This document shows, piece after piece, positions 711 to 26,505 of a DNA stretch of 64,000 nt. The stretch comes from Octopus vulgaris. Its lineage: Eukaryota. Under the pieces are notes generated by a model, which saw nothing but the letters and a program-made list of their open reading frames with translations, ran no database searches and had not been told where the DNA came from. Each line of letters starts with the position of its first letter. The stretch's first letter is position 1. The translations under genes were made by a program, and so were the position numbers. The stretch covers positions 67,456,001 through 67,520,000 of the forward strand of contig OX597832.1 of NCBI GenBank assembly GCA_951406725.2, in the 5' to 3' direction.

Positions 711-712
<2 letters not shown>

Positions 713-1266
713 GCCCTGATGCAGTACCAGGCAATGGCTCTCATGGCTTCTGATCTTAACTGATTGGAAGTGTTATCATGTACATTGTTTTGTCTTGGTA
801 TAAAAGATGGGCTACAGTAAATATTCTGCTCAATACCACAGATTTGCTTGTCAGTTATTTGACCTTAAGCAGTTGAGCATGTCCCTTAGTGGCTGACGAT
901 ATGTGCATCTCTGATCACGAGCAGAAGTAGTGGGGGAGAATCATAGCCATGTGTTGAGAGGGATTCTTTGGGGTTTGAATAATTCACCTCTGGAAACATG
1001 GGTGGTTCTTTCAACATCCTTAAACAACCCTTATTCAGGGACCTTTTGAGCGGGATGGGCTACTCAACCTGAAGAAAATTCTAACTGGGCCCCACCTGCA
1101 AGGTCATGTGCTGTTTATCTTGATATGAGTTCACCTTGTCGCGCACATATGGTTGTGATGCATGTGCCTGGTGTGTCCTTATCAGACGCGTAGTCATGAT
1201 GGGTATATTGGGCTTCGTATACTTTACCCCAGTGTCACTTTGATGGCATGAACTGCTCTCTCACTC
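711..1266 (+). mobile_element. ~556-bp non-coding retroposon (SINE/SIDE-like), copy 1, inserted in (TAA)n
   Basis: Same sequence recurs at 2858-3350 and 25912-26454; all end ...cactc followed by (AAT)n; no ORF. Confidence 0.85.
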
Positions 1267-1336
<70 letters not shown>

Positions 1337-1338
1337 TT

Positions 1339-1490
1339 AATGAACAATGTAATAGTACATGTGAATGGCTCTGCAGCCTGAAGCAAGCAGCTTCTTATCT
1401 CCAGCAAAGGACTATCCACTTCACTGAAAACAAAATCAGAAATATGAGTAAAAAGATAAGCAATTGGGAAACATCAGGACCTGATGGTCA
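1339..1490 (+). mobile_element. R4/Dong LINE fragment, N-terminal edge of RT
   Basis: Translates ...EWLCSLKQ...KISNWETSGPDG, a degenerate NWKSPGPDG motif; begins right after (TAA)n. Confidence 0.65.
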
Positions 1491-1819
1491 TCGTTCCCAT
1501 ATCTAGCCTTACGGGATTGACACTGACTCGAGTTTCTTGGTGTTTACCCGTCCACAGCGTGTGTTAATCACCAGTTAGTGATGATAACTCACTTCACTCA
1601 CAAAATACTATATGCTTTTTCCAGCGACGTACCGTCGCTGATCTCGAAAAAGGAGAAATAAGCTATATTAAATCTCTGATCGTGATATAAACAGTAGCAC
1701 TACGGAACCGTAACATATATTTTCCAATCAAGTGTAGCGTCCTATACAGGACAGTGCTACTGACGTTTATAACCCCATGAGGACATCTCTTAACGGCTAA
1801 CATTCTGTGTCCTTTTTCT

Positions 1820-2685
1820 AGATAAAGACCAATGCCTCAGAGAAATCGAGGGAAATGACAAGATTAGCACTTGGAGATGGCTAAAAAATAGGGATCTGAA
1901 AGGATTCACTGGGGCATTGATAGGCAACACCCAGGAACAAGTTCTGAGAACTAATTACACCAAGTTCCAAATAGATAAGTGTAGAATGAGTGGCAGTAGA
2001 ATCGAAACAATCTCAGATATTGTGAGTGAATGTAGCAAGCTAGCCCAAAAGCTCTAGAAAAGGAGGCATGATAATGTTGCTGGGTTCCTTCACTGAGGCT
2101 ATGTGAAGAGTACGACCTGAAGTGAGCTCGGAAATGCAACGAACATAAACCGAGAGTCACCGACAACGAGGAACATAAAATACGGTTGGATTTCACACTC
2201 CAGTATGACTCCCTAGTCGATGCTCGGAAAACCTGCAAGAAATTGTTGTGGTAGAGGAAAAACGGAGACTAATGTCATTGCAATACCTGAAGATGTACTC
2301 ATAAGTGACAAAGAACTGGGAAAGATTGAAAAGCACAGACTACTAAAAGACGAAATTACAAGAATATGGATCATGAGGTGCGTGTCTGTCATTCCAATAG
2401 TTGTAGGGGAACTCGGAGCACGAACAATAATGTTCGAGAAATATTTTGAAGAAACCGGAATCGACATGTGAGTAGAGCAAGCCCAAAACACTGATCTGAC
2501 GGGGACAGCTAGAATTTTAACATTGGGACATAGATGTTAAATGTCTCTCATGATAATTAACAACCAAGTATCAAAGTTTAAAATGTGCAGAAAAAAACCC
2601 TGTGAGACCTCTCAAAACAGGTTGCTGTCCGCTCTCACAGAATCTACCAGAACAAACAGTACCGAACATTCTGAGAGGTAACGCG
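1820..2685 (+). mobile_element. R4/Dong LINE 3' portion (second family): CCHC knuckle, REL endonuclease, 3' UTR, (TAA)n tail; pseudogenised
   Basis: Translates TWRWLKNRDLKGFTGALIGNTQEQVLRTNY...KCRMSGSRIETISDIVSECSKLAQKL*KRRHDNVA, then VIAIPED...DKELGKIEKH...EITRIW...VIPIVVGELG (ORF 2220-2471); stops and frameshifts; ends in (TAA)n. Confidence 0.9.
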
Positions 2686-2733
<48 letters not shown>

Positions 2734-2801
2734 TTAATAATAATAATAATAATAACAATATTAATAAAAATAATAATAACAATAATAATAATAATAATAA
2801 C

Positions 2802-2857
<56 letters not shown>

Positions 2858-2859
<2 letters not shown>

Positions 2860-3350
2860 TCATGTACATTGTTTTGTCTTGGTATAAAAGATGGGCTACA
2901 GTAAATATTCTGCTCAATACCACAGATTTGCTCGTCAGTTGTTTGACCTTAACCAGTTGAGCATGTCCCTTGGTGGCTGACGATATGTGCATCTCTGATC
3001 ACGAGCAGAAGTAGTGGGGGAGCATCATAGCCATGTGTTGAGAGGGATTCTTTGGGGTTTGAATAATTCACCTCTGGAAACATGGGTGGTTCTTTCAACA
3101 TCCTTAAACAACCCTTATTCAGGGACCGTTTGAGCGGGATGGGCTACTCAACCTGAAGAAAATTCTAACTGGGCCCCATCTGCAAGGTCGTGTGCTGTTT
3201 ATCTTGATATGAGATCACCATGTCGCTCACATATGGTTGTGATGCATGTGCCTGGTGTACCTTTATCAGACGGGTAGTCATGATGGGTATATTGGGCTTC
3301 GTATATTTTCCCCCTGTGTCACTTTGATGGCATGCACTGCTCTCTCACTC
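2858..3350 (+). mobile_element. (TAA)n-anchored ~550-bp retroposon, copy 2 (5'-truncated by ~63 nt)
   Basis: Nearly identical to 774-1266; (TAA)n on both sides. Confidence 0.85.
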
Positions 3351-3389
3351 AATAATAATAATAACAATAACAATTATAATAACAACAAC

Positions 3390-3455
<66 letters not shown>

Positions 3456-4333
3456 CACGTAGGTAGCACTTTCAACCGCCTGCGTAGTTTATTTTATGAA
3501 TTAGAAATATAACATGTTAAGTGACGTCAAACTTGATCTTGGTGGGAATTAAATAGCATATCATTATATCAGACATTCTATTAGCATTGCAATGAAGACT
3601 GATTAACAAAATCTGTGGGGATAACAGCCAGCTATATCAAAACCCGTGCACTAATGGTATGTTACTCTGTCGAAAGTGGATCGTTGCAAAGAGAAGTTTA
3701 TTCTACCGAGATCAACTGTGTCTTTCATCGATGGAATATAGAAACAATGAATGTGTCCATAATTTTCGCAGTTGTCATTGGTTTTTGAAATCTTCGATGA
3801 AACTGTTTATTACATTTGTGCATTCAGAAATGGATAAAACATACAGGCACCAACCAGAATTAAACTGTGTACGTAAAGACATGATTAAATAGCCTAATGT
3901 ATTTCGTCTGGCATTCTACACATTCTTTGGTCAAACACACTAAGTCATGTGATAATATTGATTTCTTTGATATTGGTACAAGGTCAAGGGCTTTGATAAA
4001 ATTAATGGCAACATCATTGAATAAAACTAAAACTAAAAAAAAGAAAACATGGGTTTGCAATGGAATATCAGAGACATGTTTGACATGTCGTCTCATTCGA
4101 ATGCAAATATAAAATTTCAGGAAAATGAAAAAAAATGTAGAAAGAACGTTAACAGTTAAATAAAGATCAAATGATGGCACATCATCTTCGAGAATTCATG
4201 GTGTTACTCTGTCAAATAAACAGACTGGAAAAATTAGATTAATTTTAAAAGAAATAAAAGTTAAAAAAACATGGCTTTTGTTCGAGTGGAAATGATTGTT
4301 TGGTCATTTTATTTTTCTTAATATTTGTTTATA

Positions 4334-4570
4334 TCATCCGCATCATCACCATCACCATCACCATCACCATTACCTTCATCACCATCATCATTATCATCAC
4401 CACCACCAACACCAGCCACGTCGTCGTCATCCTCCTCCTTCCTTATTATTATTATAATTATTATTATTGTTGTATTGTTACTATTATTATTAGTAGTAGT
4501 ATTAGTAGTATCGCCGTTGTTAGTGTTATCATTATTATTATTCATGTTGTTATTGTTGTTATTGTGTAAT
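4334..4570. repeat. Compound trinucleotide low-complexity tract (ATC/ACC/ATT/AGT/GTT)
   Basis: Read directly. Confidence 0.9.
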
Positions 4571-7450
4571 ATTAATTTAGTTTTATTTTTAATTTTCCTC
4601 AATTTCAAATTAAAATAATGTTTTTTGTGTGAGTTAAATAAACTATCAAAATATTTGGTAAAATGGAATTAAATAAAAACAAATGAAAGAAAAAAGATGG
4701 AGGGCTGGACAAGTTGGAGTCGGAAAACCAAGTAATGAAAGAAATATAGAAAAAAGATTAAAAGAGAAAATAAAATGAAATAAATAATAAAATTCGTAGA
4801 GAGTTAAAAGAAGGAGACACAATGCATAAAAGATTATAGGCAGGAAATAGAAGGGTAAAATAGGGAAGAAAATCGACGAAGAGATTGGCATTGGAATATG
4901 CTGTGTATGTGTGTGTGTGTTTTGTTTTGCTTTTTAAGATGTTAAAGCACATTAGAACAGTGCCGGAAGAAGCTCCACCATTATGAATGATCAAAATCAC
5001 ACTTGCGTCGACAATACTAATATCTGATTAATAACTCTGTAATTATTAGCTTTACGAAGATTTGTAATTAAGCAAATTCGCATTTGACATTTTCCCTCAA
5101 AGATTAAACTTTAACAAAACGGAATAAAGAAAAGGAAAATTAAAAACTTTAAAAGAAATGAAAACAAATATGGCTAAAAAAGAAGACAACTGACACACGC
5201 CGAGATAAAAAAAAAAATTGTGTTTGACCTCAAAGAATGTTTTAATTCGATAAAAATCCAATTCCCTTGAAAACTGGACATGACTGAGCTTGTTGTGAGC
5301 TGTATTACAAGTCACCGTAGGAAGAAAAAAATACAATTTATTTGTAATGTGTGCTTTCGTTTTGTTTTCAGATAATATTCATTCTTACCCAACTGCACAT
5401 TGTAAATAATTAGGGTCTGCAATGGAAGATAACTAAATTCAATCGAAGGCGTACACATATGGTGGCACAACATGCTAGCAATAAAAGCATGTGTCTAATA
5501 TTTTTAAAGCATGACATTTATAAATATAGCAATATTCACCAATCTCTCCATCTATCTTCACCGCCCGCTATTTCTGAAAGTATCGTCGGTATACAGCACT
5601 CAAACACCTATTTATAGGTTTCTATCAGAAACAATCACTATTTCACTTAACCTATTGGGTTTCCAGAAGTAGTCAACTCAGACAATTGATATTATCTAAC
5701 CACATCATTCTTAGTCTACTCCACAGTTTCCTTCCGGTTAGATCAGCTTGAAGAATCCGTCCCGTGTTTCTTTCTTGTGACATTGTTATGGCATTTCCAC
5801 AGGCCCAGGACTGTGACTTCTCAATGCAGAGAAATAGCGGCTTGACTTTTAGTGACTCTCAGAATTCATTCGGAAGAATTTCATTTCGACCGTTTGCATT
5901 CGCGATTGTACAATTACAGAGAACGAAAACAACTTATATTTGTTTTATCATATGGACGTAACCATGACAAAACTGTCATTAAATAACAATCACAACATCA
6001 GAGGATTAATCAATCACACAATGCTTAATCAGTGGTGGATCGTCCTTCTAATATAATGAGTACCTGTCATTTTATTAATTGTATAATCAGGAATAAAATG
6101 ATATTCTTTTGTGGCCATATGCTCTGAGTAATTCAGGTTTTTGTTGGATTTCACTTCTAAAATACCTTGCCTTGTTTGAGATGATGCTGGTTTGTGGAAT
6201 CTCACTCTTTCTCTGTCTCTCCTATTCTTGGAGAGTCACCATTTTTTGCGCTAAATTTTTTTCATATTCTCATGCCAACCATTATCGCGAGCTTCCACTC
6301 ATCACTTATTTCCAATTTCTTCTCATTCATTGGCATACACATCCATGTACTTCGCCATTTTCTCTTCAGTTTTTAACCTCAGTTCTTGAACAAGATTTCG
6401 AAACGTTATATTTTACATTCCATCAAATGAATGAACTCATCCAACCTTTCTATGAACTCTGAAATCAACAAAGAACCTCTCAGAATTTCAACCACTTTCA
6501 CTTACTTAGGCATGTTTGGATTAGATATGGCTGCTGAATTAATCTTAAAATACTTCGAATACGAAAAGCAAATTCGATAAAATAAAAGGGAAAAAAGTAT
6601 CAAAATATATTTTGGCTCATAAAATATATGTATTGGCGTTACTTTATCTAATTGTCTGCTTAACTTAATCCGAAATAAAAATATACCATTCTATCCATAT
6701 TCAACAGAGTAGGGGCCACGATACAAACCCTGGATGGTGTATCTATCAAAACAATGGATCAGTGTAGGCAGTAAATTTCATGTCAGTGTAATAATATCCA
6801 TTCCAAAATGTGTGGACATACTTATTGGTTTTCACTTCTTTTTCTCTTTTTTCTATAAAAGAAAAATACTTCTATTATCTCTTTCGGTACTTCCTTTTCC
6901 AACTTTCATTTTTCTCTTTCTTTCCTCTCTTTTCTTTTTATTACTGTTTGTTTTTATGACGTCTGATTCCAAAATTCCAAACATATAAGAATCTTCATTT
7001 CTATTTCGTTGCAGAGAGAATAAGATTGTGCTTATTTATCTCAATGACTAACTTATCCACACATTAAATCCACCTGCGAAAGTTGCATGCCATAATCTTG
7101 ACAGTTTTATTTATTTATTTTACTCAACAACAACAAACAAACAGTCACACAAATGTATTACTGTCCTGCACTTTACTAATATTTCTTATCTCGTCTTTTC
7201 GTTTCCTTATTTTTCTCCCTATAATACTTTGCGTAACTGAGCTATAAATCCACAGGTGTGGCTATTATTATGAAAGAAGCTTCATGCGGACACTTTAAGT
7301 ATTCGATCTACTACACAACCGAATATAAAACATTATATTAATTCAGTTCCTAACCATTTACCATCCTTTCTTTTCTTTCCTCTTCTAAAGAGCCGTTCAT
7401 GCAATAATATTGAAATAATATTATTGATTGTCTTTTATACACACGTACAT

Positions 7451-7520
<70 letters not shown>

Positions 7521-8062
7521 CTGTATATGTATGTTTGTTTGTATATATGTATATATTTATATCTATATATATGTACGTGTGTGAGTATGTGTTTGTGTGT
7601 AAGCAATAGGCCTCTCGTGTTTATAAACACAACTGCAGCGAAGCTTATCAATTAGAAGAACCTCTTTTCTTTTGTGAACATCGTGAATATTGAGTATACG
7701 GTGAAAGACCAGACCAACTTTTCTAAAAAGCTATCTCTCCTCTCTGTTGATTTTATCAATATTATGATAAAAAGAGTCAGCAGGAATGCGTGTCTCCGCT
7801 ATACAATGCCTAAGCAAGGGGCTGCATTTCACAAGAGAAAATGTCTTCAAGTAAGCAAAAAGGATCACTTACAATATATATTATAGTTAGTTTGAAACTT
7901 CTTCCATATGACTTTAATCTCGGAATCGACTCCACAGTTAACCTAATCAGATGAAATTCTATTGTATTGTTCAGGATATCAAATAATAATATTCAAGCAG
8001 TTACTTTATTCACCCTATCGGTTACAGAATAGATCAATATTTGTGTATATGATATACATACT

Positions 8063-8112
<50 letters not shown>

Positions 8113-8524
8113 TATATAGGTACATGCATATATGTGTCTGTATATATGTATGCATATACTTATATATAAACGTGTGTATGTGTATATATACTCACACACA
8201 CAGACCTACCGATATAAATATAAGCAGTTCAGTGGTCACAGTAACAATAAGGTAAATATTGATTTCCTACATAGGCAAAATCTCACATATATTGGATATG
8301 TAGAAACGATTAAATCTTAGAGTTTTGAAGCTATTGCCACACTGATTTACTTGCAACAAAAAGAATCTTTTCTGTGAATCTTTCCCTTCCCTCTCCATTT
8401 GGAATGGAAGTTACTTTTCGTTATTTACCTGAGCCCTAACCTCCATAGTATAGAATTCAACGATACTGTGGTTTCCATTTGATATAATGCTGTTCCCCGA
8501 CTCGCCCCCTTTGTATGCAAAACG

Positions 8525-8720
8525 GAACTTGCCAGCCTTGAAATGCTCAAGTGTTTCGCCCGTCGCTACGTTCTGAGTTCAAATTCCTCCGAGGTCGACT
8601 TTGCCTTTCATCCTTTCTGGGTCGATAAATTAAGTACCAGTTGAATACTGGGGTCGATCAAATCGACTGCCCCCCACCAAAAAAAAAATTTTCGGGCCTT
8701 GTGCCCAGAGTTTAAAAGAG
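8525..8720 (+). mobile_element. tRNA-derived SINE, family A (central domain gccgaggtcgactttgcctttcatcctttc...taagtaccag, Meta-domain-like)
   Basis: B-box-like gagttcaaattcc; same domain at 31865-32070(-), 34140-34320(+), 51252-51458(+), 53420-54025(-, decayed) and 58257-58657(-). Confidence 0.8.
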
Positions 8721-8947
8721 AGAATGTACACAATTTTCGATGCTTAATTTTGGTTGAACGAAGGCAGAAAAATCGTTGAATATTCAAGTATATGCTGTCA
8801 GTTGTGCATGATATGGTTACTAAAAAGTGCTTTCCTTCGACCTGTGTTCGAATTGGCCCTATCTCGACAATTTCATTGGTATTTTATTTAATTGTAATTC
8901 AAAATTGATACAGTTCTTAGTATTGGGGATACTTGAAGTTTATAAGC

Positions 8948-9675
8948 AGGTGAAAGCCTGGCTGTGTGGTAAGAATATTGCTTCCCAATCAGATCGCTCC
9001 AGGTTCAGTCGTACTGAATGGAACTTTCAGCAAGTGTCTTTTACTGCATACCTGGGTCTTTAAAAGCCTTGTGAGTAGATTTGGAAGATTGAAACTGTAA
9101 GAAATCGTTGTAAAGTTTGAATCAAATGTCACTAAGGGCTGCAATATTTAATAACTTATTTGTTCTTGAAAATTAATTTTTTTATCTTTTACAAATTTCA
9201 TAAAGAATATCTTCGAGGTTAATCATGGAAAAGTTCACGACCGAAAAGTGAACACAAATTGTGAATTTTTACTATCGAAACCAAACATCAATAATTCTAA
9301 ATGAAAGGGAATATCGTCGTCATTACGATGAGAAGGATTCTTTAAGCGGATCAATAATGAGACGTTTTGAGGGACAGGGTTCAATGAGCAATCTTCAATG
9401 AAATGGCAAACCTTGTTCCGTTTGGAACGAAGCCATAGTCAGGCGTCTAAAGGAGAAAGTTAAAGAACCAAGCACATTAGTGCTTGACAACCATTACTTG
9501 ACAGCTAATGCTGGTTTGTTTACGTCCCTGTAAATTAGCGCCATGAACAAAGAGACCGATAGAGTAAGAACCAAACTTAAAAATACTAAGTACTTGGCTT
9601 GTTCTGCTCAGCTAAACCCTCCAGGTGCCCCATTATAGTCCCACTCCAATGACTGAAACAAATAAAAGGTAAAAT
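8948..9675 (+). mobile_element. Decayed tRNA-derived SINE, family B; head 8948-9110 and tail 9480-9675 separated by an insert
   Basis: Head tggctgtgtggtaag...ggttcagtc and tail aaagagaccgatagagtaag...atgactgaaaca match the copy at 61008-62036. Confidence 0.7.
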
Positions 9676-10184
9676 TTAAATATTGTAATTGTAGAACATA
9701 GAGCGAATGGTTAGATTCACACCGGTTTCCTTTAGTTCTCCGCACTAATTATTCAAATAATGAAACTATACTAAATATATTCAAATGTCTTGAAGTGCAT
9801 TCTACAAATTCCTGAGTGAATTCAAACAAGAGTAATATTGGCATTAAATAGTTAAAGATATGCAACAGAAATTTAAAATGCGATACGGATTAGGAAATGA
9901 ACTGACAAGCTAGTTGATTAGTTGCTGTGGTATAGAACCTGGTTATATCTCATCAGGAAACAAGCGAATACTTTGGAAGACATATTTTCCATTATTTTTG
10001 CCCTCTTTTACACTGTCGTTCCCGGTATTGCAAGAACATCAAAGTAGTATTAGGAGTTGGGAACGGAAGGCAGGGAAAGGGGTTAAAGCTTCGGTCATCG
10101 GTTTGAGATATTTCGAACGGGATCATGTCTTGATGCTCTGCTGACCAGCAATATTCCTATTATTAATTAAAAGCAACATCCCCA

Positions 10185-10217
10185 TCATCATCATCATCAT
10201 CTCCATCACCCCCATAC

Positions 10218-10256
<39 letters not shown>

Positions 10257-12699: not shown

Positions 12700-14156
12700 A
12701 TCACAAGAGAACTGGAAAAGAAAGACCAGGCAGTAGGGAAGACAAGCAACAGCATAAGAGATACAGCTCAAACCAAAGAAGAACCTAAAGGAAAAAAATA
12801 ATAAAAGTGCTACCAATAATGATGGGACAACTGGCACCATTGACTTACGGGGTTTAAATGAGGAAGATCAGAAGATTTTAGATGAGTTGCAGGAAGTAAT
12901 GTGAAAAGGAGTTAGTAACAGATTGCCAACATTAAAAAGCACCAACAGAAGGAAGCTTCTAGAAATGACTAGGAAAGTAGATTCTGTTATCAGGAGGATA
13001 GACACTAACATATTGATCTATACAGGAGGGGCAGTAGTCACTAGAAGTTTATATCTCTCACAGAGAAACATCTAAAACATCCAAATGTGGAAAAGGAGAC
13101 AATAAAATAAAGTGAAGACTTTAAGACAAGATCTGAGTAGAATAGAAGCGTTGAAACGGAACAAGTTAGAAAACCCAAGATGCAAATCTTCCCTTGAGAA
13201 AAGATACAGAGTCAAAGAGAAAGGATTTGGGATAGTAATAAAAAAAGTTGAAATAGCGTATCATAGCAGGAAAGCTCTCCAAGTATCAGAAAATAATAGA
13301 CCAATATCAACAGAAGAGATTATTTCAGACAGAGCAGAGAAGATTTTATAACCAAATAAATAATGGAGAATGTAATACTGAAGATGAGAAACCTAAGGCA
13401 GAAGCTAGAAATTTCTTGAATAATATTTGGGAAAAGCCAGCCAATCATAATGGAAATGCAGTATGGTTAGAGGAAGTGAGAGAAGAAATAGTGAGTTAGA
13501 AGCAGCCAGATCTAAGATTAACTAGTGCATTAATGAGTGAAGTGATAGAAAATACCGAAATGGATAGGCCCAGGACCAGATTTATTCAAGGGTACTGGCT
13601 AAAGAAATTTAGTAGATTACATGGGATGCTGAAGGGACAACTTCAGGATTGCTTTAATAGAGGAATTTTTTAAAGACTCCGCCGGTTACGACGACGAGGG
13701 TCCCAGCTGATACGATCAACGGAACAGCTTGCTCGTGAAATTAACGTGCAAATGGCTGAGCATTCCACAGACACGTGTACCCTTAACGTAGTTCTCGGGG
13801 ATAATCAGCGTGACACAGAGAGTGACAAGGCTGACCCTTTGAAATACAAGTACAACTCATTTTTGCCAGCTGAGTGGACTGGAGCAACGTGAAATAAAGT
13901 GTCTTGCTCAAGGACACAACGCGTCGCCGGGAATCGAACTCACAACTTTACAATCATGAGCCGAATGCCCTAACCACTAAGCCACGCGCCCTCACTCAAT
14001 AGAGGAATAATACCAGACTGGATTACTGTAGGGGAAACAATGCCCATTGTGAAAGATAAGAGCAAGCGTAATATAGATAGCAACTATAGACCTATCACTT
14101 GCTTATCGTTAGTGTGAAAGCTATTTACAGGAATGCTTTCAGAAAGCATTTACGAG
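12700..14156 (+). mobile_element. R4/Dong LINE, 5' half of ORF up to early RT, pseudogenised and interrupted by a SINE; left boundary approximate
   Basis: Translates NRLPTLK...LIYTGGAVVTRSL...MWKRR...LRQDLSRI...LFQTEQRRFYNQ...NIWEKPANHNGNAVWL...WIGPGPD.IQGYWLKKF...IPDWITVG...NYRPITCL...KLFTGMLSESIY, typical of Dong/R4. Confidence 0.88.
13667..13995 (-). mobile_element. Full-length tRNA-derived SINE, family C, with 11-bp target-site duplication
   Basis: Minus-strand A box tggcttagtgg and B box gagttcgattcc; TSD aatagaggaat at 13656-13666 and 13998-14008; Dong reading frame resumes after it. A deleted relative lies at 43030-43170(+). Confidence 0.9.
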
Positions 14157-14590
14157 CCAGGTGTTGACAGCTTCGATCTTATTCCGTCCATTCAATTTGG
14201 ACTTTAGGATCAGTCTGCGCAAGTACTCCACCCTAAATTTTTCTGTCATTTCTTTCTCCATCAAATTATCCATTCCCAAATTCCCCAAGTACTTATAGCT
14301 CGTCTCTTCTATCTGCTTTATAACCTGACCCGACGGTATCGTTAGCCCATCCATACATTTGAGTTTGCCTCTCTTCAAGACTAACACACCCCACTTGATC
14401 ATTCCGAACTCCATTCCGATATCAGCACTGAAGGTATACACCGTATGAACAAGGGAACTGACTTGGGCTTAATCTTTACGATAAGTTTGAGGTCATCCAT
14501 GAATAACAAATTGTTGACTTTTTGTTGGCGGCTTCTGAACTCATACCCAGCTTTCGCTTTCTTCTGAATCAGTGTTAGTGGTATCAAGCA

Positions 14591-14592
<2 letters not shown>
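14157..14592 (-). mobile_element. R4/Dong LINE RT fragment (catalytic FMDD region), opposite orientation, 5' end at (TAA)n
   Basis: CLIPLT...GYEF...NNLLFMDDLKL, FSADIGMEFG..K.GVLVLKRGK, YKYLG, LKSKLNGRNKIEAVNTW (ORFs 14399-14677 and 14139-14441); adjacent (TTA)n at 14593-14663. Confidence 0.92.
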
Positions 14593-14665
<73 letters not shown>

Positions 14666-15489: not shown

Positions 15490-17115
15490 TTGGGTACCAT
15501 AGCCCATGTTTGTAAATAGATGGTTTTTTTTTGCAGCTATATTCAAGTGTAGCTGGTTTATATAGAATTTGTTGGAGATATTCGTCCAAGTCCCTCTTGA
15601 ATGCTTAGGTTTCTTTTCTTATGTGTCTTGGTATGATGCTAATGTGAGCAAGGCTAGTTGAGGTGATGTGGTTTAGTCTTATTGTTATAGCGTGAGGTTA
15701 ACATGATTTTTGTAGACGACGGCTATAACGGGAACCAAGTCTTCAGTGAATTCTAAAGCTGATGCCAACAGTATTGGGGCTGTGTTATTGAAATATTTTC
15801 CACATCAAACCCAGGATATGACGTTCACGACAACGTTGGAGGGATTAAAGTTTGAGTTTCACGTGACGATTCTGATAATGAAGACCTGTCATATAATATT
15901 TTCCTTGTGATCGATCTGTTGGGCTCTTCAGTATTTTCATATTGGGAGACTCAGCGGGCAAAATTATTTAAGGTGAGGGCGGGAGAAGGTGAAAACCAGA
16001 ACAATAATTGTAGGATCGCCTCCAGACCGAAACGTTGTGAGGAACCAGGAGCACACCTTTTCATATTGGGAGACTCAGCGGACAACGCTATTTAAGGTGA
16101 GGACGAGAGAAGGTGAAAACCAGAACGATAATTTTAGGATCGCCTCTAAACCGAAAAGTGGAGAGGAACCAGGAGCACACTCTGCAGGTCATGTCGATTT
16201 TGTTGTTTATGTGAGCACTCCAGCTTCAGGTGTTATCGACAGTTACTCCCATTTCCATATCGTTGTTTGATGCCACAAGGTTTTCGCTCGAGGTGAGTGT
16301 GTATAGTTGCTAAAGCGCAGCCTCTTCGCCAAAGTATATTCAAATTTAATCTTATTTAAATGCATATTGTATTTCTTTTAACGCATCGGATAACAGTGAG
16401 CCGATCTGAATGAAGAGTAGTATGATCTTCTGTCTTATCGGCGATCTTGAGAGGTTTAGATTCATCCACAATAATTGTAATGCTGTTATATTTTCATGGC
16501 GTCATAGATGAAAATCATGAAAAGCGATAGTTCCAATATAGTGCCTTGTGAGACAGACAGCACTAACGACTCTTGCCGTATTTGATCGAAAACCATCGAT
16601 TATTTCATGCTGGATTCTGTTCACTAGAATGCATTCAATCTACTTTAATAATTTCCTTCGGACTCCAGTGTTCGATAGTTTTTTAATTGAATGCTCTAGT
16701 TAATCTTGTCGAAGGCCTTTCAGAATTTCAGATAGATGACATCTCCATTGGAGCCCACTCTCGAAGCTTTTAAGAAATCATCAAAGAGATATAGGAGCTG
16801 TTAGTCCCTGACATTACAGAAACGATGTTGGTCGAAAAAAAACAGTCTGTTACTTTCCAGGAAGTGAGTTACTCGAGATTTCAGCATTGTCTCAAATAAT
16901 TTGATGACAAAAGAGGTAAGTGAGATCGGGCGGTAAAACCTTGACAGCAATTCATTGCACCTTTTGAAAATTTGGACACTCAACTGGGATAGGAATGTTT
17001 CAGGAATGTGGCCAGCGTCGAGAGAGTTCCTCCAGGGAATAGCTAAAAGGAAAGCCAGTTCATGACAGCTCTCCTTCCGAAATCTACCGGGGAAAATGTC
17101 GGAGCCTATAGCTGA
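15490..17115 (-). mobile_element. Decayed CR1/L2-group LINE, RT domain to 3' end
   Basis: Minus-strand motifs in order: YRPISLTS..IKLFE, DVIYLKF*KAFDKI, SQGTILELSLFMIFIYD, IIVDESK (degenerate FADD), MHLNKIKFE, GVTVDN..SWSAHIN, SWFLSTF, RPHLK, KLKL*SLQRCRER..LMWKIF, FKRDLDEYL. Confidence 0.85.
15934..16180. repeat. 124-bp direct tandem duplication inside the CR1-like LINE
   Basis: ttttcatattgggagactcagcgg...gaggaaccaggagcacac at 15934 and 16058, moderately diverged. Confidence 0.9.
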
Positions 17116-17150
17116 GTTTGTTAATATCTGTTACGATATCTGAAGTATCA

Positions 17151-17246
<96 letters not shown>

Positions 17247-19785
17247 CCTATCTATCTACCTATCTATCTATCGATCGATCGATCGATCAATCTATCCATC
17301 GATCTTTCTTTCCCGCTCTCTCTCTATATATACATATATATTTATATATATATACATGTATATATGCATTTATATGTATCTATACATGTATGTACGTATG
17401 TATATATATATGTGTGTGTGCGTATGCTTGTATTTAAGTATGCAAATATTAACGTATATGTATATTGAGAGGCATGTAAAAGTAATCAACAGAAATTTTA
17501 AGAAATTAAGCACATACACAAACGTATGCGTGTTTGTGTGTGTGTGTGTGTGTGTGTGAGTGTGTGTGTGTATATATGTGTGTGTGTGTGAGTATGTGTA
17601 TGTATATGTGTGTGTCTGCGCTTGTGTGTGTGTTCACGGCTTGGTCTGGCATGTCTTACGTGTATTTTCGTAGACTTTCATCTACGGAGACTTGAAAACA
17701 GGTTCCCCAACGGAAATCAACCTAGTTCTAAAATCAATGTGTTGAATTAGACATCCTAGTATTTCCAGCTGATCCGGCACTTTTAAAATACCTGTCATCT
17801 TTGCTGTTTCTGTTGGAAGTTTTCACATGCTCACAAGATTGGTTGTGCTTCATTCCTTGTATGCCTCACATCCATACAAGTCTTAAATATGCAATCATTT
17901 TTCTGTACCTACTGATATAACATTTATGAACAGCAATAAAATTCTTGCCGTTATATACGTATCGTACATCCTTTAAATGGTAGCTAAATCTATCTTAAAT
18001 CACATCAGAAAAATTGAGAAAATAGACACAGGGAACAGGATTATACTGACGAGATGGTTATGTTCGGAAACCTTTTAAATATGTGCCATTTAATTTGTAT
18101 TAACTAAGGTTTGAAACACGATAGATTGTGTTGAAACGCTTCCGGTGTATCAATTTATCAATATATTTATAGACGTATTTAGTTTCTGAAACTAGGTTTT
18201 GTACATGGCCAGTCATTCAGCTAAACATTACCAAATGTTAATGAACTCAAGCTTTATATCTTACCAAATCATATTCCATAATCTGATCCTCGCCACTTTG
18301 CATATAGGTAAAAGTCGAGACTTTCATAGTTGGAATATTCCTGAATATAGATTTTATTGATTGAATTATATTTTGAATTAAACAAATATGAAAACAAAAA
18401 TATTAGCCATTTCAAGAAGATGAAAAGCTTTTCGGCGCCCATAGAACCAAGCTTCTATGGAATTTACATTTAACATTATTTATCGATTTAAACACTGAAC
18501 TGAATTCAAAACCAAACAATTTCAATCCAAATAAATATCTATTTAGATATGTTATTATTTCCCTGGGGTATTAGAACTAATTTCAATCTGAACTATGTTT
18601 TCGTAAATGACAAACAAAGCCACGAACATGAAGATATTTTTAAAATGTTTACTTCTATTCCAATATATTCTGAAGAAAGTAATATCACTTGCACTTTTAT
18701 TAACACCAATATCCACTTTTCGGTGAAAATAATTAGTTTCGGGCAGATAACTAAAATTTTGTTTTCGTAAGCCAAACAACTTTCACTTCTCTCTGATATC
18801 AACTGTGATAATGGTTACCTTTATTTATTGTTTGTTGGTGTTTTTTTTTGTTTTTGATTGTTCTTGTTATTTTTGCTGTTGTTGTTTTGTTGTAGCCATC
18901 ATCGTCACTGTTGTTGTTTATTTCCATGTCTATTGCGAGAGAGCACATCTATAATAAATATAAAAAAAAGTGTTCGTCATTATCATAGTTTCTTTCATGA
19001 ATAACTAGGTCGGCATTTTCACATATGTTCTTAGATCTTTGAAGATGGTATATAAATGAAATAAAGATATCAATAAATACCATAAAAATTATTATTTGAC
19101 GCTATACTATGTGTCTGAAGTTCAGCCATATCGGAATAAATCCGAGACATTTGGCAATGTTAGTAGAAAGAAACGAGCAATTTTTCCATAGCATTGTGAT
19201 CTGTCATTTGATTATATAATTAAAGAGAAGTTTCAAACCCTAAGAAATAATTCTGTAGCGAAAAATCCGTGGGTAGATTATTATATACCATGCAGGCTAT
19301 ATGATATGCTCCGTGTTTTCTATAACCATCACATCGTATGAAGCCAGTTTGTCGTAATCAAAAGTAATGGAAACGCCTGAAAAACAATTGTTTGCCCACT
19401 TGATCGTGTTCGCTATATATACTGAATATATTCAAATAGTATGCGCCACACTCGCGCGCCATTTCGGCGATATACTAGATTAGATCCAATTTTTGCTGGT
19501 TATTCATCTATACATTTCGGTACAAGGGATATTCTTTTATCTAGTAAAATAGATGACACTCTGTCTACTGTTTTGATGTCTTCCATACAATGCGCATAAA
19601 GGTATTTACATGTCAGATACTTTCACTATCTCTATACTCCTACGCTAGAATAAAAATTGATAGGTATGTTAGTTTTCTGAATAGATGCTGGAGATAGCAA
19701 TATAATTTTAGTTCTCCATATATAAAATGTATTTATACATGCATACATACATGTACCGTGACAGGCAAAATAATATACATAAATA

Positions 19786-19822
<37 letters not shown>

Positions 19823-20004
19823 TTCACTACTGTATTAACAATGCTACCAAGTGTTTCATGTTGACGGAATCACTTAGCAAATATCAAGCTTGCCACATCG
19901 GAACTTTGATACTTGTCTCTACTTAGGATGGCAGGTGTGTATATGTATACACACACACACATATATATATATATACATACATACATACACACACACACAT
20001 ATAA

Positions 20005-20048
<44 letters not shown>

Positions 20049-20469
20049 TAAACAAGGAAACATTCTTCATTGAAAAGTACAAGCCCAGACTCAACCATCC
20101 GAACATACTGATACAGAGAAATTCACATTAAGGGAAAGGAAAAAAAAGTTTAAGCAATTATCTCCCTTACACCGGAAGAAATCACCCACTACCTTCCCTT
20201 ATTTAGAACTCTCCGGAGCTTAAACACAAGGATAACTCTATTAAACATAAACATAACGTCACAAGAAATTTGAAAAGCTAAATGCGAAACCGGTCTTTCT
20301 TTAAAAATTATGTCATTATAAAGGAAAAAAAAATTGTTTAAAAAATTTTCTAATATTCTTCAGACATATTGACGCAAATATATATATTTTTTAACATTTA
20401 AGCCTTCTGTCGTTTTTTCACTCTTTACTATTTTTTATATATTCACCCACGTGCTTTCACAAACCAACT

Positions 20470-20472
<3 letters not shown>
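20049..20472 (+). mobile_element. 3' end of a Penelope-like element (GIY-YIG C-terminus plus pLTR with decayed hammerhead), between (TA)n tracts
   Basis: KETFFIEKYKPRLN (20054-20095) fits the E..FI.K.KP.LN end of PLE GIY-YIG domains; hammerhead-like motif at 20263-20301. Confidence 0.7.
20263..20301 (+). ncRNA. Degenerate minimal type-I hammerhead ribozyme
   Basis: Stem I aagaaa/tttctt; core ttgaaaa (CUGAAGA with 2 changes); stem II gc-taaat-gc; GAAA; palindromic stem III ccgg; GUC. Confidence 0.6.
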
Positions 20473-20548
<76 letters not shown>

Positions 20549-20671
20549 TTTTAGCGGGCAAGTTTAACCGCCTATGACCTGTTCTATAAGAATTTTACAG
20601 TGGATGTGTAGCACCATTTGGCGTCTGTCTTTAGCGTGTCGGAGAAGGCTTGATCGCCTTGATATAACTAT

Positions 20672-21060
20672 TCTTTTATTCTTTTACTGTTTCAGTCATT
20701 TGATTCCGGCCATACTGGAGCACCGCCTTTTAGTCGAGCAAATCTACCGCAGGACTTCTTCTTTGTAAGCCTAGTACTTATTCTATCGGTCTCTTTTGCC
20801 GAACCGCTAAGTTACAGTGACGTAAACACACCAGCATCGGTTGTCAAGCGATGCTAGGGAGACAAGCAGACACACAAACATATACACACAGAAACATACA
20901 TATACATGTATATACATATATGACAGCCTTCTTTCCGTTTCCATCTACCAAATCCACTCACAAGTCTTTGGTCGGTCCGAGGTTATAGTAGAAGACACTT
21001 GCCCAATTGCCACGCAGTGGAACTGAACCCGTAACCATGTGGTTGGTAAGCAAGCTACTT
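20672..21060 (-). mobile_element. tRNA-derived SINE family B, head truncated at junction with the Tx1-like element
   Basis: Reverse complement of the 61008-62036 family, including the internal (TA)/(TG) tract; first ~20 nt (A box) missing. Confidence 0.85.
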
Positions 21061-23076
21061 TATTTCATAAAAAAATTGCCATAACGGCATTACAAAGAGT
21101 AGCTGCGAGCTGGACATTGATGAGGTGAATGATGAAATAAGGATGATATTGATGAGAGAAGGCAAAAATGCCCGCCGATTTTCTTCTCTAAAACATTGTT
21201 CTTTTTTTTAAAACAGAATAAACAAAGTGAGGTATTGAACCTCTCACAACAGTTTTTACAGTTTTTGGACTTAATAGTCCATTACAAATATTAACATGCA
21301 AAATGTATTCAATATACAATCAACACTAGTCCATTTACAAATGAGGCGCTGAGCTTCTTACACATTATAGCACTGAGGCTTTTCAACCTCTTGTCAATTT
21401 TCCACCTCATAATCGCTTGTGTCCGTGTACACCGCCATAGCCCATGCTTCGTTTAAAATCAAGGCAGGGTCCGAATTAGCGTCACCCGGTCATGAGCGAT
21501 ATTCTTCTTTTAGTCCCTTCATCATCATAAACAGCGCAACGTTATGACCTCCACATCTATCTGCGGAGGCCATTCGGGGTCCTGTGTGAAGGCCAAAGGT
21601 ATTCCCTCGTAGTGTTCTTTTACTATCTTTTCCACCTCTCCGCCTCTATAAAAGAAGACCAACAGTTTCAGGCCCATCGGGTCTGGGTCGGTCAATTTTA
21701 CCGTTGGCAGCACAATTCCCGACAATTGTGTCACCCCCCGCTCCAGTAGCACAACCGACGAGGCTCCGTGACACTCCGGCGTCATGTCTCCGACTGCCGG
21801 CAATGTGCCGTTTCTCTTCCTCTTCCTCTTTTTTCTTCTCGACTAGGGGAGGGTGCGTCTTCTCTGTGACCTGGAGATTCGCCTCTCCTCCCACATTCCC
21901 AGGATCTTTCGGTGAGCACCCATTATTGCTCTCGTTCCTTTTGCGGCTCTTCTTTGAGGTGTCCTCTATCTCTTCGGTCGTCTTCATTCCCTCCTCTACA
22001 GATGACACTTGGGAAGGGGGGCGTCCCTCAAGAATCACCGGATATTTAGACCCGGCCATTCTCAAAAAGTTCGGAAATACCAGACTTTCGGCTGACTGGG
22101 TCCATAGTGTCAAAACAGCTTTTGACCCCTCCCAGTCAGCCGTAGGCAGAATATTTACGCTGAGGAGCTTGGTGCTACTGCCACCCAGACCCAGGCGGAT
22201 AGTATCTCCTATCCACTGGGGCTCAACTCCGGGTGGCTAGCCGCAAACCCAAGGCCTCGTCAAACTCTTCCCACAATAAGTGGGGAGAAACAAGATTTCA
22301 TTACCCTCCGGAGGCTGACTTCCAAATTCAAAGGCAACTTCTGGAGAGTCAAACAGCAACCACATGGTTGCGTATTTGACCTCCCGAGTGATAAACTTAA
22401 TCTCTGGCTTAAATTCTGCCAGCTCTCTTTCGATTATATCCTTTCTGAAAACGGCAATGGCGTCGTGGGTCCTAGAGTAGCTCCTCAAAACCACCGTCTT
22501 ACTTTCAAGTTCTTTTAACCCTTTTTTGGGTTGTGTAATTTCCCACTTCACCAACATTTCATTGTTATTTGCCATGTTTTTTAGAAAGAGTCCAAAAATA
22601 CACTTGTTAAAAAATAATTAAAGAAAAAGAAGGAAGAGGAAAGAGTCCAAACAAAAAGGAGAGATAAAAAAATTAAAAGAAGAGAGAGCAACAGTTCAAA
22701 ACACAGCAAAGGCCACTTGGTACTCCAGGCCAAAATTTAACACATTTGTAAAACAGATTAAAAAATCATTCCAATTTTCTTCTAGGTACTCCTTAACAGG
22801 AACAACACTATTTTCAAACAAATATTTTGGCAGGATACGCCCACCAAACCAATAATTTTCACAATTAAGTGACTAATATCTTCACTCAGCCTCAGGTAGA
22901 CTAGAGTCCAGTGAGAACTTCTTACTTGTGAAAATAATTTGCGACATACAACAGGTCCCCAATAGATCCCAAAAATTCTTACCTTACGGCTGGGTTTCAA
23001 AAGCCTTCAATTTAGGACGGCTTCAAAAAACACGTCTCACACCTTCTGTGTCAAACACAACTCTAATTCGCACAAC

Positions 23077-23080
<4 letters not shown>
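21061..23080 (-). mobile_element. ~2-kb Tx1/L1-clade element with ORF1 only (HAL1-like), ORF disrupted
   Basis: ATG at 22575; ORF1-like sequence runs through a stop at 22237-22239 into ...DWEG...FPNFL...YPVILEGRPP, then a charged low-complexity linker; no endonuclease/RT; AATAAA at the 3' end (~21059-21064); 5' end abuts (TA)n. Clade assignment is by motif resemblance. Confidence 0.65.
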
Positions 23081-23131
<51 letters not shown>

Positions 23132-23134
<3 letters not shown>

Positions 23135-24756
23135 TTGCGGCCAAAATGTTCAGAACGGCATTGTTTTCATCAGAAAAGTAAGTATAAGTTTTTATCAAAG
23201 TAGTTTTATATTCTATAATTTTTACAGACAATAAATACAATATGAATTGTTATTGTGTGAGATTTTGGTGTAATTTGAGGGGTTAAAACAAAAGTTAGGG
23301 ATGATTTAGTGATTTATTGCAAGACCCATGGCGGTCAAACTGATCAGAACGGTTGAAAAAATAAAATAATCAAAAATGACAGAAAATACTGGAATTATTT
23401 AATATTTAGTGTGAAGCCCTTTAGCTTCAATCACACTCTGACATCTTTGACTGCATGAGGAAATTAAATTTTCAATTTCCTGCTGGGTGATCTTATTCCA
23501 TTCTTTCTGAAGGGCATTCCCTAATTGCTCAGTTGTTTTAGGATTTCTGGCTTTCGAACGTTCTCCTAGAATATTCGATACATTTTCAATAGGATTGAGA
23601 TCTGGGCTTTGAGCAGGCCAATCCATAACAATAACCTTTTCAGCCTTAAGGAAGTTCATGATCACCTTAGCCTTGTGACATGAGGCATTGTCCTGCATGA
23701 ATATGAGTGGTCGCTTATTTGAATTTCTCAGCACAGGCAAGACATGCTCTTTTACAAGTTGTTTATAAACTCCAGCATTTACCTTTAAATGTAATCGCAC
23801 CAAAGGGCCCACACCATCTCCAGATATCATCCCCCAGACCATGACACTTCCTCCACCGAATTTAACACTAGTCTTAAGGCATTTAGGCGACAATTTTTCA
23901 CCTACTTTTCTACGAATATACCTTTTCCTATCTGAGCCAAATAACATAAACTTAGATTCATCACTGAAATGCACCGTTTGCTATTTTTCTTGAGACCACA
24001 ACACGTGTTTGGTTGCAAAGTTAAGACGACACTTTTATTCTTGGAGCTGATCAGTGGCTTCACTGCAGGTGCTCTTGCTTGTAGGTCATGTTCAACTAAA
24101 CGACGAGACACAGTTTTTCGAGATAAAGTTTTCTTCAATACAATGCTTATTTTCCGAGAAAGAGCAGCAGCAGTTTTAAATCTGTCCTTTTTAACCAAAT
24201 TTACCATAGCACGATCTTCTCTCTTGGTCGTTTTTCTTGGCCTACCTGTAAACTTTCTTGCTTCACACGGACCACAATCATCGTAGACCATAAGAATACC
24301 GTGTACAACACTTTTTGACTTGTTAACAATCTTTGCAATAGATCCAATACTTAAATTATCCTTCCTTCGAAGCTTAATAATCTGCTGACGAATTGGTAAC
24401 GGAGTAAGTGGCATTATATTAACAAAGTACACTGCAAATATACTTACTAATGTTTAGTAAACGAACCGTCACGTAAACAAATTCAAAACATTAGAGTTCG
24501 CCGGTTAAATATACTAAGACACGGTGTAAAAGCAACCGTTCTGATCATTTTGGCCGCCATTGGTTTTGCAGTAAATCCTTAAATAATCCATAACTTTTGT
24601 ATTATCTTCTCAAATTACACTAAAATCTCAGGCAATAACAAATAATATCGTATTTAATGTCTGTGAAAATTATAGAATATAAAACAACTTTGATTAAAAA
24701 TTATATCTACTTTTCTGACGAAAACAATGCCGTTCTGAACATTTTGGCTACCATTC
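23132..24756 (-). mobile_element. Tc1-family DNA transposon (DD34E) with ~225-bp IR/DR terminal inverted repeats, TA target
   Basis: TIRs 23132-23355 and 24533-24756, each with outer and inner direct repeats (gcggccaaaatgttcagaacgg / gcggtcaaactgatcagaacgg); TA flanks; inserted in (TA)n. Confidence 0.95.
23399..24414 (-). pseudogene. Tc1 transposase with one frameshift (~24000-24030)
   Basis: N-terminal HTH and GRPR motif (ORF 23902-24432); catalytic FSDES, QDNASCH, WPAQSPDLNPIEN with 34 residues between D and E (ORF 23399-23974). Confidence 0.93.
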
Positions 24757-24767
24757 TATATATATAC

Positions 24768-24904
24768 AATTGTTATTATTAACGCTGCAAAAGCATCGCA
24801 GAAAGCATCACAAAAAATAATCAGTTTTACGTTCCTGTTCGTGAAACACTCAGTATCAGATTTTTTATGATACTCTCGTAATGTTTTTACAGCTTTAGTA
24901 ATAA
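24768..24904. repeat. Imperfect inverted repeat (~45-bp arms) starting at (TA)n
   Basis: ttattattaacgctgcaaaagcatcgcagaaagcatcacaaaaaa pairs with ttttttatgatactctcgtaatgtttttacagctttagtaataa. Confidence 0.7.
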
Positions 24905-25500
24905 AGCATATTACGCTACTTTGCTATTCGGACTATTTTGTAACCGTTGTATGTTGGGCCTTATGGGTTTAATGAATAAAATTTGCACGTTTAGGTACAC
25001 TGAAATTTGATTCTGAATGGAATTTGTGAATTTTTACTTTTTTCAGCAATGGTCTCTTAATAGTATACTCGTCTTTCAAATCAGGTTCATAATTGCAGAG
25101 CTAAAGGGGGATATTCCCCCATCGTTGAAGAAATGTTAATTTCTTGGTCTGGCATGTTTCTGTCTAAAGTTTCATGTTATTTTCCTGGAGTAGACCTTCA
25201 TATACTGGAATTTCTATTTGCATTTGTGCATCAATTGTCTTCATTTCCTTCCATTGGTATTTTGTCTTGATCGTCAGAGTTGAGTTTCCATCCGGAATTG
25301 CAGACAGCCATTTGTTACCTTGATTTGTTTCGTCGTTCAGGTTCATTAGGGAAAGATTTTATTCATAATTTTGCGGGGAGGATCACTGATATTGTAGCCA
25401 ATATTTTTAGCGAAGTTTCATGTGATAAATTTGTGATCTGTGTAGTTCTGGTTTCAGGTATATATTTACATATGTATAACTATGAAATATATAATATAAT

Positions 25501-25546
<46 letters not shown>

Positions 25547-25836
25547 CAATATCAATATTGAATTATGATTATATGATAGAGAAGAATATGTATTTTATAC
25601 ACCTAATCAATTTCAATACACTTTACATAAAGCATTTAGCATTTATCATCCGCAAATTTACCACCTGTACTCACTAGATTCACAAAGAAATAACCCTCAT
25701 TAAATATCCTTGATTTCATGATGGCCACGTACTATTTCAATAACATTGAAAAGTATAGAATAATAATAAACATAATAATTGTAAAAGCAGCGACGACAAT
25801 GATGATGATGATGATGATGATGATGATAAGAATTGA

Positions 25837-25910
<74 letters not shown>

Positions 25911-25911
25911 A

Positions 25912-26454
25912 ATACCCTGAAGCAGCACAAGTCATTGGCTCTCATGTCCTTTGATCTTAACAGATTAGAAGTGTTATCATGTACATTGTTTTGTCTTGGT
26001 ATAAAAGATTGGCTACACCAAATATTCTGCTCAATACCTCTGGTTTGCATGTCAGTTGTTTGACCATAACCTTTTGAGCATCTCCATTAGGCTGACGATA
26101 TGAGCATCTCTGATCACGAGCAGAAATAGTGGGGGAACACCATAGCCATGTGTTGAGAGGAATTCTTTGGGATTTGAATAATTCACCCTTGGAAACTTGC
26201 GTGTTTTCTTCATCATTCTTAAACAAACCTTATTCAGAGACCTTTTGAGTAGGATGGGCTTCTTGAGCTGAAAAAACTTCTAACTGGGCCCCACCTGCAA
26301 GGTCAAGTGCTGTTTATCCTCATACAAGATCACCATATTTTGGTGATGCATGTTCCTGGTGTACACTTATCATACGTGTAGTCATGGAGGTTATACTGGG
26401 CTTCATATATTTTATCCCAGTGTCACTTTGATGGCAACCATTGCTCTCCCACTC
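25912..26454 (+). mobile_element. (TAA)n-anchored ~550-bp retroposon, copy 3 (full length, more diverged)
   Basis: Colinear with 711-1266; preceded by (TAG)n, followed by (TAA)n. Confidence 0.85.

Positions 26455-26505
<51 letters not shown>

Follow-up and report, generated by a model that had tools for sequence, protein, structure and literature searches.

A 64,000-nt stretch of Octopus vulgaris DNA (contig OX597832.1, positions 67,456,001 to 67,520,000 of the forward strand; here called the window) carries three copies of a 556-bp repeat, which we interpret, at a probability of about three in four, as a non-coding, structured retroposon that lacks a tRNA head and is retrotransposed in trans by the protein of Dong, a long interspersed element (LINE) of the R4 clade. 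The element family itself is real, abundant, recently active and target-specific. Use of the Dong machinery had been put forward in an earlier reading of this DNA (the original prediction), and it is the most likely explanation of the element’s target, polarity and junctions, although the link to the partner is circumstantial.

All three copies proposed in the original prediction were recovered when the window was compared with a consensus built from 97 copies; these copies and the other window features described with them lie on the plus strand. Copy 1 (711–1266; consensus 1–556, 97.8% identity) is full length and young, copy 2 (2858–3350; consensus 64–556, 98.0% identity) is 5′-truncated and lacks the first 63 bases, and copy 3 (25912–26454; consensus 1–556, 85.3% identity) is full length and old. 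Copies 1 and 3 thus share their 5′ start, and all three stop at the same base and continue into (TAA)n, as had been claimed. The nearest genome copy to copy 3 is no closer than 86% identity, so we regard copy 3 as a decayed copy and not as a separate subfamily. No open reading frame (ORF) of more than 50 amino acids that starts with ATG lies wholly inside a near-consensus copy, which agrees with the earlier statement that the element has no ORF.

The surroundings of these copies also follow a pattern. Copy 1 lies between a (TAA)34 target tract (609–710) and a (TAA)25 tract that is its tail or target (1267–1341), copy 2 lies between TAA tracts at 2686–2857 and 3351–3455, and copy 3 ends in a (TAA)17 tail (26455–26505). 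The proposed (TAA)n setting therefore holds for copies 1 and 2 and for every 3′ side, but not for the 5′ side of copy 3, which is a (TAG)25 tract (25837–25910) with an (ATG)n run ahead of it. Copies 1 and 2 do stand behind Dong 3′ ends, each across a TAA tract. Ahead of copy 1 is a 5′-truncated end of Dong/R4 family A, a candidate partner family, comprising the C-terminus of the endonuclease and the 3′ untranslated region (UTR) (326–608; 92% to an intact 1,344-codon copy); ahead of copy 2 is an old, decayed and distant R4-like 3′ end (about 1857–2686; 29% amino-acid identity to family A, E 1.6e-12). An internal family A fragment flanked by TAA tracts lies at 70–223 (92.5% to family A). The position of the copies behind Dong 3′ ends is a mere by-product of the common target.

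To describe the family as a whole we used an unselected sample of 100 evenly spaced 10-kb stretches (1 Mb) of the 2.8-Gb genome G000, in which 24 matches, merged by hand, represent 21 insertions. On the 5′ side, 14 of the 21 have a flank that is strictly TAA (5 or more TAA triplets in 10) and 17 have a tract of TAA-like triplets; of 18 intact 3′ ends, 16 continue into TAA. By comparison, 0.4% of 20,000 random positions have a TAA-rich flank. Genome-wide, a 19-nt motif from the 5′ end has 7,118 exact matches (its reversed control has none), and TAATAA precedes 4,277 of them within 1–2 bases. The first 100 of these matches listed correspond to 88 consecutive loci on contig C1, where 58 loci have a strict TAA flank and at a further 27 the element either adjoins a TAA or TAA-derived tract, which is decayed or a few bases away, or follows a reiterated piece of its own sequence. 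TAA tracts thus hold most copies in all three surveys, and the possibility raised at the outset that most copies might lie elsewhere did not materialize.

The way in which copies are incomplete is informative as well. Among 75 matches other than the query hits, 17 are full length, 30 are 5′-truncated, 15 are 3′-truncated (several of these being stutter pieces or interrupted copies) and 13 are internal. The excess of 5′- over 3′-truncated copies fixes the sense strand, and the element carries the marks of target-primed reverse transcription: a fixed 3′ end, a repeat tail and 5′ truncation. One element copy (L324, G000:C1:30147400-30150200) is preceded by the first ~68 bases of the element, repeated in tandem about eleven times, which is either an extreme case of 5′ stutter or a later expansion of the array. 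Another locus (L122:4432-4679) contains three 47-base copies of the 3′ tip only, each between TAA tracts, beside two longer copies. A systematic long target-site duplication was considered and dropped: a first pass gave 4 of 17 against 0.2 expected, and a second gave 4 of 20 for the element and 0 of 17 for Dong against a permutation mean of 1.1 and a maximum of 6, with two loci clear. At these two (L020:1501-2055 and L002:1501-2056) the TAA tract is broken on either side of the insertion by one and the same complex interruption, which implies duplications of at least 75 and at least 63 bases.

A search of G000 returned 4,187 candidates, the best 40 scored of which are 97–100% identical over nearly the full length. 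In the 1-Mb sample the element occupies 8,227 bases, or 0.82%, and scaling from this sample gives a copy number of ~59,000 (Poisson range roughly 36,000–90,000). Divergence from the consensus ranges there from 1.6% to 18%, and one subfamily contains 11 copies that are 0–2 mismatches away from the consensus of that subfamily. Of 24 listed public runs from five coded organisms, 16 contain half or more of the sampled element words. Small shares of the element in two RNA runs, X17 (labelled as an insect metagenome) and X19 (organism F), possibly reflect cross-contamination or diet, and are not evidence that the element occurs there. A published octopus repeat library is reported to comprise 51 Dong-R4 consensuses and 1,279 unclassified consensuses of short interspersed elements (SINEs) (PMC13282606), and the present sequence probably figures in a library of this kind under some generic name.

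Protein searches of G000 identified candidate partners. Long open frames were found in four Dong/R4 families, A–D, which are assigned to the R4 clade by their target, their motifs and the order of their domains. Family A encodes RVT_1, CCHC and RHD/RPD motifs in a frame of 1,344 codons; its copies are 99.1–99.8% alike with intact frames, and it starts with the same six letters as the junction primer of Bombyx mori Dong printed in PMC3774820. Taken together with the young subfamily of the element, these intact and near-identical copies mean that the element and the Dong families are active concurrently. Two further R4-like families are dead, with longest frames below 380 codons among the 150 and 128 matches listed. 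The Dong 3′ UTR contains a bulged hairpin (window 559–593; 36.8 bits with model R1) that covaries across Dong families, with 91% of 160 cells paired, 33 double changes and none of 500 shuffles as good. It was seen in the window and in the 3′ UTRs of ten other loci (L005, L014, L028, L061, L067, L068, L119, L146, L231 and L235) and is common to most Dong 3′ UTRs, but it is not universal: two old R4-like families (L184/L026; window 2530–2686) fall outside the model. Two other observations concern these families. Dozens of family C copies on C1 have a C-terminal frame of exactly 95 codons, which could be due to a shared stop, a frameshift or a short derivative, and at L070 (about 516, plus strand; minus-strand position 5785) a relative of the family A 5′ end lies directly behind (TTA)n and not (TAA)n.

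The element and Dong share several features of insertion. Behind TAA tracts, the element was found in sense polarity 99 times and antisense 4 times, and families A–D 93 and 5 times, respectively; the queries enriched for these loci, which does not determine polarity. The first 10–130 bases were flagged as tandemly reiterated at the 5′ junction in 11 of 99 element and 13 of 93 Dong cases, or 9 of 99 and 11 of 93 once two doubtful rows are removed from each, compared with 3.3% of random windows (n=3,000). Most 3′ junctions of the element (82 of 94) and of Dong C (22 of 25) have the same phase. The 108 sequences that end at a TAA tract in the 1-Mb sample comprise 16 element ends, 17 Dong 3′ ends, 19 members of a reverse-facing cluster of tRNA-derived SINEs, 7 members of two small clusters and 49 singletons. 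At TAA tracts the element matches all Dong families combined in frequency.

We then considered what in the element’s RNA might be recognized or processed. The description of the element as a non-tRNA retroposon stands: Rfam scans gave no meaningful match, ARAGORN found no tRNA, and alignment to 35 host tRNA sequences (10 anticodon types) did not score above shuffles, with a weak positive control (36.5 vs 30.3). The earlier remark that a clear B box is missing was likewise borne out, as we found no A box for RNA polymerase III (Pol III) and a single weak B-like word, with one mismatch, at element position 118; runs of four T occur at 78, 334 and 512. A cluster of at least seven tRNA-Cys-like genes and variants was noted elsewhere in the genome (L273, G000:C12:25267077-25270148). 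The plus strand is predicted to fold better than shuffled sequences (z −2.52) and the minus strand is not (z +1.28). The predicted fold has three domains, spanning element positions 3–102, 114–216 and 219–555. The 5′ domain (window 713–812, plus strand; z −2.44, with 6 of 200 shuffles as good) is predicted to close with a 4-bp stem that begins at the first G, and may be a promoter or 5′-processing module. The 3′ domain (window 929–1265, plus strand; z −3.95, none of 100 shuffles as good) is predicted to close with an 11-bp helix in which the final bases of the element are paired, and a bulged stem with a 5-nt G-rich loop is predicted 53–100 bases from the 3′ end. Among the four hairpins listed in the original prediction, the first (element 36–45/52–61) is part of the high-probability fold, but the other three segments pair elsewhere. 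Recurrent transitions among copies keep predicted pairs 24 times and break them 6 times, against 84 and 69 for rare ones (p 0.014). The fold is best described as a thermodynamic prediction with weak evolutionary support.

Several results weigh against the idea that Dong moves a structured RNA of this kind. We detected no homology between the element and Dong ends: blastn against 30 long copies of families A–D gave nothing (best E 0.14), tblastx against seven long copies gave nothing (best E 0.30), and an nhmmer search for a common tail gave nothing. Local alignment to 13 Dong/R4-like 3′ UTRs, judged against shuffles, showed no similarity and no shared tail; a 14-nt likeness to the UTR of family E, which 3 of 200 shuffles equalled, does not reach significance across 13 tests. 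With the Dong hairpin model the element reaches 4.6 bits at best, compared with 17.8–36.8 bits for Dong copies. These comparisons covered four active families and 13 UTRs, against 51 Dong-R4 consensuses in the published library, so a rare family with a matching tail may have been missed. The 3′ junction letters of families A, B and D are unlike those of the element, and the control for 5′ stutter, a tRNA-derived SINE, comprises 8 junctions only. No ribozyme was recognized in the element by Rfam or by a descriptor for ribozymes of the hepatitis delta virus (HDV) type, tools that also miss the Dong 5′ ends used as a positive control. The pair-keeping excess of recurrent variants falls to p 0.075 when matched for base. 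RNAalifold on 40 copies returned a different consensus structure and no covariation (term −0.85); the covariation that had been proposed as a check on the hairpins was therefore not obtained, as expected if the copies are dead. Finally, the element in public runs takes the form of assembled contigs without strand or ends, which are no evidence of transcription, and one run (X15) is only guessed to be RNA.

These results must be set against other explanations for the element. One proposal, that 5′-truncated copies of an autonomous LINE with a long 3′ UTR are being mistaken for an element, accounts for a truncation shape and a TAA tail like those of Dong 3′ fragments. However, 5′ ends pile up at positions 1–2 in 67 of 99 junctions (a set enriched for full-length copies by the queries), and upstream of the element we found no attached LINE body: in four DNA runs, the loose ends with the best support on its last 177 bases share no upstream sequence and consist of the element’s own sequence, and the 3 of 88 C1 loci with unique, non-repeat flanks are unrelated to one another. 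This explanation, which the original prediction had named as the outcome that would overturn it, is largely refuted. A closer competitor keeps the same enzyme and differs in origin. The element could be a short internally deleted element (SIDE) of old date, in which the 5′ and 3′ UTRs of an R4-clade family that is extinct or rare are fused, and which the surviving Dong families now mobilize. Dong UTRs cannot be aligned between families, so that lost homology would be expected; dead R4-like families exist in G000; the stem at the first G of the 5′ domain resembles one that the family A 5′ end appears by eye to have; and R2 SIDE lineages are reported as more than 40 million years old and 25% diverged from R2 (PMC3414825). 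The absence of similarity to families A–D and the 13 UTRs, the absence of the Dong hairpin and the lack of an alternative upstream sequence among the best-supported loose ends all speak against it. As an internally deleted form of the four intact Dong families or of the families behind the 13 UTRs, the original suggestion fails, and the broader version with a vanished parent seems to us unlikely.

Two further explanations change the promoter or the enzyme. In the first, the element would be a conventional Pol III SINE, perhaps among the octopus SINEs named in 1994, and its head, derived from tRNA(Lys), would have decayed beyond recognition. A precise 5′ end fits an internal promoter, and tRNA-Lys(UUU) is the best-scoring isotype, collinear with positions 3–78; its score, however, is no better than that of shuffles (p 0.56 local, 0.38 end-anchored) in an alignment set of 10 anticodon types with a weak positive control, and lies below that of several internal windows of the element. 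Together with the lack of an A box, the lone B-like word, the T4 runs and the silence of ARAGORN, this makes a decayed head quite improbable. Equally, some other enzyme that targets microsatellites (HERO, Penelope-like or RTE) might move the element, with Dong merely sharing the target. Some HERO families are described as targeting microsatellites (PMC4640811), and no Dong tail is common to the element. Against this, the recurring 3′ ends at TAA tracts in this polarity in the 1-Mb sample are those of the element and the Dong families, the inverted arrangements typical of Penelope are rare (4 of 103), and the element’s 5′ stutter matches that of Dong; we consider such an enzyme a slightly poorer candidate even than a decayed tRNA head. 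A retrozyme or Penelope passenger is not supported, with no hammerhead in Rfam scans, copies that are separate insertions between TAA tracts, and 4 of 103 junctions antisense.

If retrotransposition in trans by Dong is accepted, a pathway can be sketched. The Dong protein would nick the TTA strand of a TAA tract, and the element RNA, read on into its (UAA)n tail, would pair with the nicked strand and prime reverse transcription in place; stuttered 5′ ends would then be a product of the re-priming habit of the Dong enzyme. Stringent LINEs normally require a 3′ recognition signal such as the Dong hairpin. Because that hairpin is absent from the element, loading may instead depend on the UAA tail and the folded 3′ domain and not on mimicry of the Dong UTR, although this step is more weakly grounded than those before it. 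The sharp 5′ end within a bare TAA flank means that this end is set from inside, by a promoter or by a cut. The least certain step is how: a read-through transcript of RNA polymerase II (Pol II) might be cut where the 5′ domain has its first G. We tentatively lean toward such cleavage, by analogy with B. mori Dong, whose RNA is reported to self-cleave at the TAA junction by a demonstrated HDV-like ribozyme (PMC3774820). An internal Pol II promoter seems a little less probable, and an atypical Pol III promoter would be a distinctly weaker choice.

Part of the element has had a second history. Element positions 103–272 (window 813–982, plus strand) also occur in the interior of an older family resembling a miniature inverted-repeat transposable element (MITE), with 6 differences between the consensuses over 170 aligned bases. 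This family (L201–L222, for example G000:C1:61970132-61973152) is ~490–560 bases long with terminal inverted repeats, and its junction motif has 320 exact matches. At two CpG sites of the segment, MITE copies show one decayed state in 15 of 20 and 12 of 20 cases, while a native MITE CpG is mixed; these states suggest that the MITE took up the middle 170 bases of the element from a decayed genomic copy and not the reverse. Since median MITE divergence is 10%, the element would be at least as old as the MITE. The element is not itself a MITE, as its ends are not inverted repeats and the family with the shared 170 bases is separate. A reading frame that seemed to continue upstream of position 106 turned out to be a MITE arm, and for the resemblance of the first 105 bases of the element to the left arm of the MITE (p 0.059) we make no claim. 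A supposed second family with the 3′ domain only (L027, L244) proved to be old copies interrupted by mariner; the mariner involved is young and abundant, and it adjoins what is left of each copy (L027:2435-3556, and L244) at a different point along the element.

The window contains other features apart from the element. Two long frames on the minus strand at 23402–24453 resemble a Tc1-type transposase by eye, and inverted matching ends surround them at 23122–23355 and 24533–24766. More decayed R4-like fragments on both strands lie around an (ATT)n tract at 13266–14593, at 21590–22237 an open frame of 216 codons overlaps one of 196 codons on the other strand, and a 124-base unit is duplicated in tandem, 89% alike, at 15934–16180.

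How the element should be classified depends on the definition used. Like a SINE it is short (556 bp), has no long ORF, occurs at 21 insertions per Mb and bears target-primed marks. We found neither a head of the tRNA, 7SL, 5S or snRNA type nor A and B boxes, and with three internal T4 runs the label SINE, as applied in the original prediction, does not hold in its strict Pol III sense. Like a SIDE it has the target site and junction style of its presumed partner, with no 5′ or 3′ homology to the families tested; judged by sequence, it appears to work like an R2 SIDE but fails SIDE membership relative to those families. In the literature searched, which does not extend to subscription journals or Repbase Reports, no SINE or short non-autonomous element moved by Dong/R4 is described. 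The element might be the first SINE-like parasite to exploit an R4-clade LINE on a mass scale: its RNA would have an independent origin, would require neither a UTR nor the hairpin of Dong, would enter (TAA)n by its (UAA)n tail and would make its own 5′ cut with a ribozyme fold outside Rfam; this full combination is speculative, and we consider it rather improbable as a whole.

The element would nonetheless surprise a retrotransposon specialist, and it is a clean case of an abundant retroposon without a recognized promoter class. It fills ~0.8% of a 2.8-Gb genome and is still young. If it is moved without the Dong hairpin, the question of stringent versus relaxed template choice would become directly testable for a site-specific reverse transcriptase-endonuclease, and the element would be a natural minimal template for TAA-directed insertion. 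Site-specific enzymes of this class are now used for targeted gene insertion. If, in addition, the RNA is of independent origin, this would show that a site-specific LINE with a restriction-like endonuclease can be template-relaxed and place unrelated RNAs into a microsatellite. Passengers of such LINEs are rare in print, and the R2 cases in the accounts cited here are low-copy R2 derivatives (PMC5786205, PMC3414825).

Comparison with known systems places the element between several of them. Ohshima and Okada are said to have named in 1994 a third family of octopus tRNA-derived SINEs, OK. Their families OR1 and OR2 are described as tRNA-derived with a CORE domain (PMC4758252, PMC4824008); these are likewise abundant short retroposons, likely of the same host group, whereas the present element has no detectable tRNA head and is set apart from OR1 and OR2 by their descriptions only. 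The relaxed partnership of Alu with L1, as outlined in PMC5786205, likewise combines the lack of a shared 3′ UTR with a simple-repeat tail that matches the target; there, however, Alu has a 7SL head and a Pol III promoter and L1 uses an apurinic endonuclease and poly(A), whereas the element has a (UAA)n tail and, likely, a LINE partner with a restriction-like endonuclease. Bipartite ORF-less LINEs are likewise non-coding and probably Pol II-derived LINE passengers; in the 2018 account those named are from RTE, Ingi, Vingi and R2, with R4 not among them (PMC5786205), and unlike these the element is not visibly built from LINE ends. Dong of B. mori, as characterized in PMC3774820, has the same TAA target, sense polarity and precise 5′ junction in TAA, but it is autonomous and has a ribozyme, whereas the element is non-coding with none recognized. 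Perhaps the nearest relatives in lifestyle are the R2 SIDEs and R2/R1 hybrid SIDEs of Drosophila, which are reported as short, non-coding, target-specific passengers of site-specific LINEs without a Pol III head, R2 being, as Dong is, an element with a restriction-like endonuclease (PMC3414825). In that report SIDEs keep the recognizable 5′ ribozyme and 3′ UTR of their parent, are rare and are confined to rDNA; the element, unlike them, shows no homology to the partner ends tested, targets a microsatellite and has reached tens of thousands of copies.

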